DNA of 16,059 bases from Plakobranchus ocellatus (taxonomy: Eukaryota): assembly GCA_019648995.1 (NCBI GenBank), contig BLXT01005793.1:717157-733215 (forward strand), in the 5' to 3' direction. Positions 7,873-12,296 of the stretch are shown here, one piece after another. A program made the translations under genes and the position numbers. Positions within the stretch are counted from its first letter, which is position 1. Each line of letters opens with the position of its first letter. Below the pieces are notes generated by a model. That model was not told the DNA's origin. It did not search any database and was given only the letters and a program-made list of their open reading frames with translations.

Positions 7873-7950
7873 GTGAGAGGGAGAAAAAAACAGAAAGAGA
7901 GAGAGAGAGAGAGAGAGTGAGAGACAGAGAGAGAGAAAGAAGGAGAGAGA
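7873..7950. repeat. (GA)n microsatellite / polypurine tract with pure (GA)10 at 7897-7917, flanked by imperfect GA/GAA repeats
   Basis: Direct reading: ...gtgagagggagaaaaaaacagaaagagagagagagagagagagagagtgagagacagagagagagaaagaaggagagaga. It is intronic, between MVP exons 6912-7109 and 8090-8322. It generates the spurious SLSLSL track ORF 7787..8080(-). Confidence 0.9.
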
Positions 7951-8089
7951 TAAAAGAATAATGTACTTGTTGTGCTTTCTTAAATACAAAGTGTTCACAT
8001 ATATTAGAGAGCAAAGAAAAAAAATTTAATGGCCAGATTGTAGGAGGGTTAACTTTAAAATGAAAGAGAAAGGTGTGCAAGTCTCAAAC

Positions 8090-8322
8090 CTGGCTTTTTT
8101 CTCTTTGTAGTCATAGATCTGAACAGCAGCATTGTGAGGAACACGGAAATTGACCACTCTGGTCTTGTCTCTAGCCTTGTGAGCATCTCTAGAGTCTTTG
8201 CGGTCACTTCGCTCTGCTAGATGGTCGACTGTAAGCAGATTTTCAACAGCAGGTGGGAGCTCTTTTGCCCAAAGCTCCTCATCTTGATTAAGCATGTAAG
8301 TGACACCTTGGATAGCACGGAC
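8090..8322 (-). CDS. MVP: MVP exon ([77 protein letters not shown](R))
   Basis: Matches human [30 protein letters not shown]...[25 protein letters not shown]. Acceptor is ttattacctttcag|GTC and donor is GCC AG|gtttga. Length 233 nt = 77 codons + 2. The split Arg codon AG|A is completed by exon 6912-7109. Confidence 0.9.
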
Positions 8323-9300
8323 CTGAAAGGTAATAAATCCATCAATAGTTAGCACAGGATTTTAGTCATTTAAAAAACTGATGTAACAAAGCCCTTGAAA
8401 TTACTTATCATCTGTAGATTCTGATAGACTTGTGAAATTCATTATTTGAATTTATAACTCAACATTTATTACAACCCACTCCCCACTTCCAATCTCTTCT
8501 CATCCCAAAAGAAACTATCAACAAAAAAAAAAAATTCCACTAACAAACAATCCTTGGAGATTATTTTTAAGATTCTACACTATGAAAACATTACTGGAAT
8601 CAAAAAATGATTTATTTGAAGCCTTGTGACAAAATGAGTAAGTGAAGATTTGGCCTAACAATTTGTAGCTGGTTTAATTATTTATAAATGATTATATTTT
8701 CTATGTCTATGGCTGGTTTTAAAGAAATATACAGTCTATAACAAACAATGTAATGTCACTGTGGTTGATAAAGATTGCCATGAATCTTCTTTCAGGATAT
8801 TTTAAATATTGTCTAGGGCTAAAGCATATAGAAACTTATTTTTTCAGGGGTTTTTTCTTCATTGATAGGCTTTTACTTTGATGTACAGGCAAATGTCAAC
8901 ATAAGATGCTTTGCTAGTACAAGTGATGTTGTGGCTGTCCTTTACATTCTATTCTATCCTCAATGTTGTTCAGAACAGGTTTATTCATCTCACGGTGAAT
9001 CTACAAGAATGCTCTTTAGCACAAATTATATTAACATCTCTATGGCCAAGATACTTTTTATGCATCACAGAAATTATTTTCATATGATGAATGAAAAGAG
9101 ATGCACAAACCTGCAAACTTCAAATTGCAGTTCTTTCTTAGACTCTTAAACTTGTGCTTTTCTTGCTTATATTTTGGCTTCTTTCTCTTCAAATATCAAA
9201 AAACAAATGATTTTATGTTTGATGAGTGGTTTTGAGAGGATAATTTAATGCATAAAAAATGAGCAGCTGGGAAATATTATTGACAGGTCTTGTCATTTAC

Positions 9301-9450
9301 CTTTCCACTCTTGATGTCTCTCACATATATGCCTTCATTTTCATCCATAGGGATTGCTTGCCTCTTCATAACAACTTCAACTTCTACAGGTGGGACATAT
9401 TCCTTTGGACCTCTGATCATCCATCTGTCCCCAGGGCTGCGAGATACTTG
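9301..9450 (-). CDS. MVP: MVP exon ([50 protein letters not shown])
   Basis: Matches human [47 protein letters not shown]. Minus-strand acceptor has a very strong Py tract: ttttttttttttttaccttttttctttccccatcag|CAA. Donor is AAG|gtaaat. Length 150 nt = 50 codons, phase 0. Confidence 0.9.
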
Positions 9451-9463
9451 CTGATGGGGAAAG

Positions 9464-9669
9464 AAAAAAGGTAAAAAAAAAAAAAGAAACAGTGACAATG
9501 TGTAAGTGACAAGCTGAAAAGCAATGTGTGAAAAAAAATGCAGGCATAAACAAAATTTTCATTCCTTTAAATGAAAATTTTGTTTATGCCTGCATTTTTT
9601 TTCACACATTGCTTTTCAGCTTGTCACTTACACATTGTCACTGTTTCTTTTTTTTTTTTTACCTTTTTT
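9464..9669. repeat. Perfect inverted repeat (palindrome) with 100-bp arms (9464-9563 and 9570-9669) and a 6-bp spacer (ccttta, 9564-9569)
   Basis: Hand reverse-complementation of 9570-9669 reproduces 9464-9563 exactly. This includes the 13-nt A run (9473-9485) versus the T run (9648-9660), and ggt...gaaac versus gtttc...acc. The first mismatch is at 9463 (g) versus 9670 (a). The mirror-image track ORFs 9377..9562(-) and 9528..9722(+) are a by-product of this symmetry. Confidence 0.95.
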
Positions 9670-10595
9670 ATATACATGCATTTTTTCTCCACTCATTACT
9701 AGTGGGTTTTTTTTTCTTTTAAAATTAACAAATTAACTGTAATTGAATATTCATGAATTTTTTTTTTTTCTCATTTGGCTTTGATTAAACCTAAGATGAT
9801 GAAGCCATTAACTGATTCTGGAAAGATCACGGTTGACTACAATGTAATTTATCAACATAGATCTTAATACCAGTTCACTGGTTCTTCAAGGATCAATTTA
9901 TATCATTTTCAATGGTCCACATATTCTTTTTTCCCTTTGCTTTAAATACATACTAAACAACAAAGAATGCATCATTCCCTTTATACAATCAAAACTTTGT
10001 TGCAGCACAATAATTCTCCTAAAATTTAATTACCATTTTGTACCCCCTGAAAAATGACATCCTTGACGAATTAAGTTTTGCACACAGCTAATTTGAACAG
10101 AAACTTTATGTTGGAATGTTAAAATATAAAACTCACTACTTGACAGTAATGCTTTTAGACTGGAGGCAAAAAGTTATGATTTCTAAAACTTAGCATCTTC
10201 TTTCTTTTTACAACAGCAAATATATCCCTTACAAATTATATATTTTTATTTTTTATCCATATTATTAACTTTGTGGGAATAATTTTTCCTGCTGTCAAGT
10301 GATTATGCTGCCTAAGTTATTCAGGCTGTTTATCAAACCACTTTTGAGCAATTAGTTATTTTTTTTAGGTAAAGATTCCATATAAATGAACTCTTTTGGG
10401 TCTTGGGTGAAAAAAATCCTAATAAATATATTTTGCTTTAATTTCAATTATGCAAAGTTCAAATTGAAGCTACAAAAGTCAGAAAAAAAATGCTTATTTC
10501 TTTGTTTATTAAAAAAGATGATGATTCTTACAGTCACACTGAGAAATAGAAAGCAAATGTAGAGGATTCACAATTCAAATGACCTTGATACTCAC

Positions 10596-10715
10596 CCCAT
10601 CCATAAATGACTCTGTAGCCTTAAGAATGAGGCCCTCATCCTCTCCCATTATGTACACATTCTGGATTCCTTTCTCCAGTTTTTCACCAGGCATCAAGAA
10701 AAATGACTTTTCACC
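10596..10715 (-). CDS. MVP: MVP exon ([40 protein letters not shown])
   Basis: Matches human [40 protein letters not shown]. Acceptor is ttcctgacatttag|GGT and donor is GGG|gtgagt. Length 120 nt = 40 codons. Not in the ORF track because it has no start codon. Confidence 0.88.
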
Positions 10716-11706
10716 CTAAATGTCAGGAACATATTGAAGAAAAGAATTTTACTCCACAACACAGTCATGTCACATAAGATAAATTGTCTTGAGATCTGTC
10801 CCAAATGAGTTGAACAAGACATTTTTGACATTTTTTTTTTGGTTGCTTTTTTTTCTTTTTAAACAACCTTAAATGCTCATATATTTGTATCCAATATTCA
10901 GTAATACAAAGCTCAAAGAATTCAATTCCAGACAAAACCACTAATTTAAAATCTTCAAAATGCAACTTGCCACTTCTTTGGACCGGTCTTGACACAGTTA
11001 TCAAATCTTTTATGAAAGCCTGCCAGTTTCCTTTATGGCTACTTCCACTAAGTTAAGGTTATGAATTTTAACAGCCTAAACATTGTCAACTCAATAGCAA
11101 GTAATGATGACTTTCAAAAAAAAAAAAGTGTCAATGAACTATTAAACTAATTTTAAAACTGCGCAGAAATTATAAACCTGTCCCAATAACACTTATCATC
11201 TCAAATCAAGCAGATGGCAGATGAAAAAAAAAAAGAAAAGGTTTCAACGTTTCACTAAATGCTAATATACATCCTTTTTTTCTTTTATATTTAGTAAAAT
11301 TTGAGGAAATAAAAAAGGTTTTCTCATGTAATAAAGATTTTTTTTTTTGCTGATTATACACTAATAACAAAAGAGAAAAAAATTGGTTACAAGATCAGTA
11401 CTAAATGATTCTGAAATAGCTGATAACAGCTTCATGCAAAGTAAATAAATCCTTCATATGAAAAATTTCAGAAAAGGTGGAGAAGCTCATGTCTTGCTTC
11501 AGAACTTAAATATACTTCATTTTCTCTTTTATTCAAATTTTTCAAAGGCCAGAACAAATAAAATTTATTTTCATTTTTTCCCTCTTTTTAGAGGTTGGAA
11601 GGTCAAATGGAGTAAATTAAAACTAAAGATCTCAATTACAATTTTCACTCTCCCCTCATTTATACAAGTTTGAATACATTTTCAATTTGTGCACCCTTTG
11701 GTTTAC

Positions 11707-11817: not shown

Positions 11818-12138
11818 CTAAAAAGTTTTAAAAAAAAAGAAATGGCAGTTTAGAGGCGCTAAACCCCGCAAAAAAGACTGTGACTGCTTTACATCTTACC
11901 CCGCAGCATATATAACAGCACAAGAGAGTTTAATTCATAATTATTTTGTTCTTCATGTCAAGCGCCCAATTTGAAAAGGACTAGATCTATATTATTGAAA
12001 ATCTGCATTAACAGCCATTCCCAAAGACAATTCATGAACAAAGCCATGTTTGAGACCACATTATTAATCACCAGTATGGCTCTCAACTATTATACCACCG
12101 ACACTATCAAATTTTTAAATGGAAAAATAGATTTATAC

Positions 12139-12296
12139 TTAGTTATTGGTAACATATACCCAATGAATGTATTTTATATTCCTAATACTTACACTTAGTT
12201 ATTGGTAACATATACCCAATGAAGGTATTTTACATTCCTAAGACTTACACTTAGTTATTGGTAACATATACCCAATGAATGTATTCCACATTGCTA
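12139..12296. repeat. 56-bp tandem repeat (minisatellite), about 2.8 copies, unit ttagttattggtaacatatacccaatgaatgtattttatattcctaatacttacac
   Basis: Copies are at 12139-12194 and 12195-12250, with a partial third copy at 12251-12296. There are a few substitutions (gaatg/gaagg, ttttat/ttttac/ttccac, aatact/aagact). It is intronic, between MVP exons 11707-11817 and 12643-12768. Confidence 0.9.

Follow-up and report, generated by a model that had tools for sequence, protein, structure and literature searches.

We describe a perfect palindrome that covers most of the 3' splicing signals of an intron in a gene for the major vault protein (MVP), and we read it, at a probability of roughly 40%, as a very young inverted duplication of the native intron end, made in a single step, that probably weakens the 3' splice site and is no evolved regulator. 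The two arms, of 100 nt each, are complementary at 100 of 100 positions and enclose a spacer of only 6 nt; outward of the arms the pairing stops, with G9463 mismatched against A9670. At the composition of this AT-rich window (the whole 16,059-nt stretch of DNA that was analysed, which contains no Ns), an inverted repeat with perfect 100-nt arms no more than 50 nt apart is expected by chance about 7e-50 times. The palindrome described in the original prediction for the region 9451-9669 was confirmed, and a search of all 16 kb returned it as the sole long inverted repeat. The whole unit measures 206 bp; its arms are 27% G+C and 73% A+T, the outer arm ends form an A6/T6 run beside a T-rich flank, and the outer 22 bp of the stem are nearly all A-U. 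The parts of the palindrome are as follows.

9464-9563, minus strand: left arm, from the inverted-repeat search, with the branch candidates and the accessibility calculation
9564-9569, no strand assigned: spacer, CCTTTA on the plus strand, which is the loop UAAAGG in the pre-mRNA
9570-9669, minus strand: right arm, from the inverted-repeat search, a composition test and the sequence

The host gene lies on the minus strand, and its closest named MVP is that of Nematostella (77% over part of the query). When the MVP homologue P0001 was placed on the window by tblastn, residues 121-160 fell at 10715-10596, residues 161-210 at 9450-9301, and residues 211 onward from 8322, from which it follows that the exon at 9301-9450 is 150 nt long and in phase 0 at both ends. 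The MVP reading frame is intact across every exon examined.

9301-9450, minus strand: MVP exon, 150 nt or 50 codons, phase 0 on both sides, from translation and tblastn (P0001 residues 161-210)
9451-10595, minus strand: host intron, 1145 nt, from tblastn; position conserved in many relatives
10596-10715, minus strand: upstream MVP exon, phase-0 end, donor GUGAGU, from tblastn (P0001 residues 121-160)
8089-8322, minus strand: downstream MVP exon, from tblastn (P0001 residues 210-290), acceptor ...accuuucag followed by GUC

The acceptor of the 150-nt exon, which had been assigned to 9451-9453 on the minus strand, was confirmed as CAG at 9453-9451, and the donor GUAAAU (GTAAAT in DNA) follows directly past 9301. 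Were the exon skipped, the acceptor of exon 8089-8322 would be the one used, and the expectation that the reading frame would then be kept is borne out by the phase-0 boundaries that tblastn gave on both sides. In solved mammalian MVP chains the product of the exon corresponds to about residues 344-397; among Pfam domains it covers the last part of a Vault repeat (PF01505) and runs into Vault_4 (PF17796). Skipping would thus remove 50 amino acids, as had been proposed, but because these cross the Vault/Vault_4 boundary they do not make up one clean repeat of the MVP repeat region. Two simple repeats were also noted in other introns of the gene: a 56-bp minisatellite at 12129-12296 (3.0 copies, 91% matches), and an imperfect (AG)n microsatellite of about 29 units at 7892-7950, in the intron downstream of exon 8089-8322; AG tracts similar to the latter are present in one relative (L089).

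The left arm begins at the 14th intron base and comprises intron bases -14 to -113, in keeping with the 13-nt distance first reported. On the transcribed strand the intron ends ...cacugUUUCU13ACCU6, then cuuuccccaucag, then the exon, which opens with CAAG. The arm itself is U-rich on this strand (55% U) and holds the long pyrimidine tract U6 CC A U13 C UUU; in the string quoted for this tract in the original prediction the T run was given as 14 where it is 13, and the string reached 3 nt beyond the arm. The further statement that the whole tract is engulfed was overstated: the long U-run is inside the arm, but the 8 pyrimidines nearest the exon, CUUUCCCC, fall outside the palindrome, and this run matches or exceeds the longest pyrimidine run at two other MVP acceptors in the window, which is 5-6 nt there. 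The branch point, by comparison, is probably engulfed, as originally suggested; the branch-like adenosines (yUnAy or nUnAy) between -22 and -97, at 9472, 9493, 9503 (CUUAC), 9507, 9529 and 9547, are all within the left arm. A motif scan found no consensus yUnAy close upstream of the right arm, where the putative alternative is a GUAAU whose adenosine, A9696, would come to lie about 39 nt from the AG across the stem base if the hairpin were looped out.

9451-9463, minus strand: intron 3' end, 13 nt between arm and exon, with the acceptor CAG and the 8-nt pyrimidine run
9471-9475, minus strand: best-placed branch-point candidate by motif scan, UUUAC, with its A at 9472 (-22), 9 bp inside the stem
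9695-9699, minus strand: putative branch-like motif by motif scan, GUAAU, with its A at 9696, upstream of the hairpin

Core splicing signals therefore lie inside a stretch of intramolecular complementarity, and folding calculations gave this arrangement a pronounced stability. The RNA of 9431-9700 (minus strand) is predicted to form the complete hairpin of 100 bp, with a folding energy of -161.5 kcal/mol (z = -25), against -50 ± 4 kcal/mol for shuffled sequences, none of 200 shuffles folding as stably; the perfect pre-mRNA hairpin of about 100 bp over the pyrimidine tract and branch region that had been foreseen is, at the level of predicted structure, upheld. In a 500-nt context, the mean probability of being unpaired across the left arm was 0.005, compared to 0.39 after in-silico deletion of 9570-9669, and that of the branch candidate A9472 rose from 0.001 to 0.53 upon the same deletion, so that these signals are predicted to be inaccessible when the right arm is present. 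For the last 13 intron nucleotides the value was about 0.30 whether or not the right arm was present. As single-stranded DNA the locus folds at -117.5 kcal/mol (z = -27), and it is a cruciform-capable, AT-rich palindrome of 206 bp.

The right arm, an exact reverse complement of the left, is transcribed first and is A-rich (55% A) on the transcribed strand; given this order and the 6-nt loop, co-transcriptional zipping is to be expected. The A-rich copy would emerge and the U-rich native segment would follow 6 nt later, such that the 100-bp hairpin would close as the pyrimidine tract left the polymerase, burying the long U-run together with every plausible branch point and leaving only CUUUCCCCAUCAG single-stranded. 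A rigid helix of 100 bp at 13 nt from the AG may also hinder the binding of U2AF. Provided that the palindrome is real, its net effect under this model would most likely be to weaken the 3' splice site of the allele that carries it, leading to some in-frame skipping of the 150-nt exon (about residues 344-397, across two vault repeats), to intron retention, or to both. There is precedent for such an outcome: a constitutive exon becomes alternative when a pair of inverted Alus lies 24 nt upstream of it (PMC2533698), and a structure that sequesters the pyrimidine tract weakens recognition of F8 exon 16 (reviewed in PMC11802352). In a study of designed libraries, on the other hand, pairing of the pyrimidine tract could in some contexts accompany more efficient splicing (PMC6783452). 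Three features of the locus likewise speak against weakening, namely the accessible 8-nt pyrimidine run, the GUAAU that looping out of the hairpin would bring to about 39 nt from the AG, and the breathing of the A-U outer stem.

Two donor-like motifs were noticed in the right arm on the minus strand, AAG/GUAAAA (GU at 9662-9661) and UGU/GUAAGU (9631-9626), the latter a perfect match to the +1 to +6 donor consensus. Both result from the inversion of the native pyrimidine and branch region into an A-rich arm. They would sit inside the hairpin, and were it to open, they could become cryptic 5' splice sites.

Which of the arms is native was approached through composition and through likeness to other acceptors. 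Two contigs from one relative, L086 and L087, have an acceptor similar to the final 20 nt or so of the intron, a stretch that takes in the outer T-run of the arm. In the introns of this gene, read on the transcribed strand, 100-nt blocks as A-rich as the right arm make up 0.14-0.33% and blocks as U-rich as the left arm 0.7-1.3%, the former thus being about 5 times rarer, and the corresponding stretch at the intron end has at least as much U as A at 9 of 11 other exons examined. These observations weakly favour a left arm that is ancestral and a right arm that is its inverted copy; the direction of copying originally proposed is accordingly plausible, short of proof, and the right arm is probably the derived one. 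The converse possibility, a right arm native by virtue of its likeness to its right flank (families D1/D2), was tried and set aside, as 41 of 300 shuffles scored as well and the likeness was not significant.

Comparison with relatives places the palindrome in a conserved gene context. GT..AG introns occur at the same codon boundary as the host intron in ten related loci (L005, L008, L016, L059-61 and L073-76), and the exon order matches in four others (L086-L089). The orthologous introns of the former group contain no hairpin, their perfect stems reaching at most 8 bp; by this comparison the pairing is not conserved. In the latter group, the acceptor-proximal 260 nt of the introns showed no likeness to the palindrome and the introns could not be aligned with the window. 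The relatives, which lack the hairpin, are only about 80% identical to the window even in exons, and beyond the last 20 nt or so their introns fail to align. Across 346 kb of related eukaryotic DNA, the longest perfect short-loop hairpin outside simple sequence had arms of 19 nt. In L001-L004 and in many metagenome loci (genomic contigs and probable transcripts), the region of the three window exons is uninterrupted, from which the intron upstream of exon 9301-9450 appears to be present in only some of the sampled relatives.

No independent copy of the palindrome was recovered by three routes: an exact look-up of 10 window ORFs, four of them spanning the palindrome, gave no match; the best hit in a homologue search with the exon ORF was 98% identical over 41 amino acids and only about 80% at the DNA level; and the best match in a metagenome scan was 89%. 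At the protein level, the segment encoded by the exon was retained in 30 of 30 homologues that span both neighbouring exons, that is, none of the 30 was a naturally skipped isoform, in a set that is biased towards proteins containing the segment. The two contigs L086 and L087 (ENA ERZ26859052) represent haplotype-like MVP copies of one relative; they are 97.2-99.7% identical, differing by about 2%, and carry kb-scale intronic indels, among them about 1.4 kb that one contig has and the other lacks. This degree of difference points to introns that are, in this clade, highly heterozygous in structure, and makes structural variants plausible.

Taken together, the perfect arms and the haplotype divergence of about 2% in a relative argue for a very recent event, and the lack of a target-site duplication and of other copies argues for a local copy, not a mobile element. 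In the mechanism that we favour, a replicating strand would fold back or switch template at a tiny hairpin, copy about 100 nt backwards (intron -14 to -113), and then return, a step for which the A6/T6 run at the arm ends would suit microhomology guidance; any microhomology at the inner switch point would be hidden within the arms. What is observed, an adjacent reverse-complement copy identical to its source at 100 of 100 positions across a 6-nt spacer, is what template switching leaves behind: the process makes perfect hairpins in one event, often in introns, although the events typically inferred span tens of nucleotides and are shorter than 100 nt (PMC10710096, PMC5453318). Probably the event is confined to the sequenced lineage or still polymorphic within it. 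An arm length of exactly 100 nt, a round number with no natural reason behind it, counts against a natural event.

That arm length, with its technical look and its 100% identity, is also the first argument for a doubtful but substantial possibility: that the copy at 9570-9669 is a product of library preparation, of sequencing, of assembly or of the closing of a gap, or entered the sequence in some other way, and that the real intron is free of a hairpin. Amplified libraries do acquire artificial palindromes through polymerase snap-back and fold-back chimeras (PMC6218980), palindromes that are long and perfect lack stability in vivo (PMC3855049), and the palindrome is exceptional beside the 19-nt and 8-bp maxima found in related DNA and in orthologous introns. 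Yet the N-free window reads across homopolymers of 17 nt, microsatellites and a minisatellite, and the gene is collinear on either side of the palindrome, which is at neither a gap nor a break in collinearity; an internal insertion of 100 nt would moreover have to win a multi-read consensus. The fold-back read artefacts that are known have kb-scale arms and usually occur at the ends of reads or contigs. Natural AT-rich palindromes of like size do persist, such as the human PATRR17 of about 190 bp (PMC1851657). Should the artefact reading hold, reads would run from ...CATTCCTTTA straight into other sequence, and the palindrome would serve as a useful flag for an assembly check. It is very improbable, by contrast, that the structure is a palindromic MITE or foldback transposon landed at the acceptor, or that it is a gene for a miRNA or hairpin RNA within the intron. 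A long perfect hairpin and sub-threshold Rfam matches to long-hairpin plant miRNA families would fit such an element, but the flanks, ...GGGGAAAG and ATATACAT..., share no direct repeat that could be a target-site duplication, no second copy exists in the 16-kb window, and no copy of an arm came up in the blastn matches between 8000-11000 and 85 related loci or in those between the whole window and L086-L089; on these grounds a transposon was rejected. The outer end of the left arm, in addition, looks like a native acceptor. A known RNA family was rejected as well, the best Rfam match, to MIR5048, scoring 71.7 bits against a gathering score of 160 and being equal on both strands, as a generic hairpin would be. 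The Rfam E-values nonetheless fell to 1e-15 (MIR5048, MIR6027 and MIR2118; window 9483-9650, both strands), purely from the long perfect stem, which indicates that a perfect hairpin can mimic family matches.

Granting that the palindrome is real, its consequence for splicing may still differ from the weakening that we favour. Helicases or ADAR editing could open the helix, and it is conceivable, if unlikely, that the hairpin is harmless, being either looped out or opened by helicases or A-to-I editing, with the exon included constitutively; the spliceosome would then combine the 8-nt pyrimidine run with a branch point lying either upstream of the right arm or where the A-U end of the stem breathes. 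In support of this reading are the length of CUUUCCCC relative to two other acceptors of the gene, the place of the GUAAU at 9696 across the stem base, the A-U richness of the outer stem and the intact MVP frame in all exons examined, as well as reports that splicing can gain from a structure lying between the branch point and the 3' splice site, through a shorter effective distance (PMC6783452; yeast work reviewed in PMC7404189). It is weakened by the lack of a yUnAy close upstream of the right arm, by the possible obstruction of U2AF by a rigid helix near the AG, and by the inverted Alus, which at a similar distance did lower inclusion (PMC2533698). The opposite proposal, that selection keeps the hairpin as a regulatory switch for exon skipping, controlled for instance by helicases or ADAR, could draw on the in-frame skip and on a placement ideal for co-transcriptional masking, but we consider it extremely improbable: no pairing is conserved in the orthologous introns, the segment is kept in all 30 region-spanning homologues, and its 50 amino acids cross two repeat domains and are not one module. 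A perfect 100-bp stem, besides, far exceeds regulatory need and lacks the mismatches of older functional hairpins (PMC10710096). The regulated skipping anticipated in the original prediction is not supported; arms that are perfect leave no trace of selection. There is, finally, a small chance that the palindrome exists as a segregating allele and serves MVP as an on/off or dosage switch, in effect the birth by one mutation of a structure-controlled cassette exon. In that event, forced in-frame skipping would yield a vault protein shortened across repeats 7-8; alternatively, the double-stranded RNA would be cut or hyper-edited, and helicase, ADAR or RNAi would set the amount of full-length MVP.

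A single mutation that places a perfect 100-bp helix over the signals of a conserved, normally constitutive exon would, if real, amount to a natural experiment. It would test in vivo how much structure a metazoan 3' splice site tolerates, whether a looped-out hairpin recruits a distant branch point, and how fast template switches make alternative exons, substrates for dsRNA editing and sources of small RNA; it would also place a fragile AT-rich palindrome inside a gene. The larger significance depends on a real allele with a strong effect in reads and RNA.

Among the closest known parallels is the pair of inverted Alus in intron 2 of RABL5 (Lev-Maor et al. 2008, PMC2533698), which like the palindrome consists of complementary segments of one intron just upstream of an exon. 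The Alu pair is 24 nt from its exon and the palindrome 13 nt, a distance that matters to the effect (PMC2533698). Pairing of the Alus in the pre-mRNA has been demonstrated to push a constitutive exon towards skipping, whereas the effect of the palindrome is predicted. The Alus are diverged transposon copies of about 280 nt, lying about 100 nt or more apart; the palindrome is a perfect local duplication with a 6-nt loop, and its duplex, unlike theirs, takes in the branch region and most of the pyrimidine tract itself. A second parallel is with structures that sequester 3' splice signals, such as the three-way junction of F8 intron 15 and the SF3B3 branch site held in a stem-loop (PMC11802352). 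Those structures are short, imperfect, conserved and experimentally supported; the palindrome is predicted to form a perfect helix of 100 bp and is unconserved.

In its presumed origin the palindrome resembles the template-switch hairpins described by Loytynoja and Goldman (2017, PMC5453318) and by Monttinen et al. (2023, PMC10710096), with which it shares a one-step reverse-complement copy of adjacent sequence and perfect pairing; the events in those studies are often intronic, lineage-specific and young. The miRNA-like stems selected in that work measure 30-55 nt, compared to 100 nt here, and the likeness is drawn in our case from the extant sequence and not from a reconstructed ancestor. 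As DNA, the palindrome is akin to PATRR17 (about 190 bp) and PATRR11 (about 450 bp) in being AT-rich, nearly free of spacer, about 200 bp long and capable of forming a hairpin or cruciform (PMC1851657, PMC4940405). Its 206 bp, its 27% G+C and its modelled DNA hairpin put it among AT-rich, near-perfect palindromes of about 200-600 bp with little spacer, and by analogy with the PATRRs it would be expected to be polymorphic and fragile. The PATRRs mediate translocations, and no link to splicing is reported for them (PMC1851657, PMC4940405). Whether real or artefact, the palindrome is a fresh instance of known phenomena and not a new kind of system.
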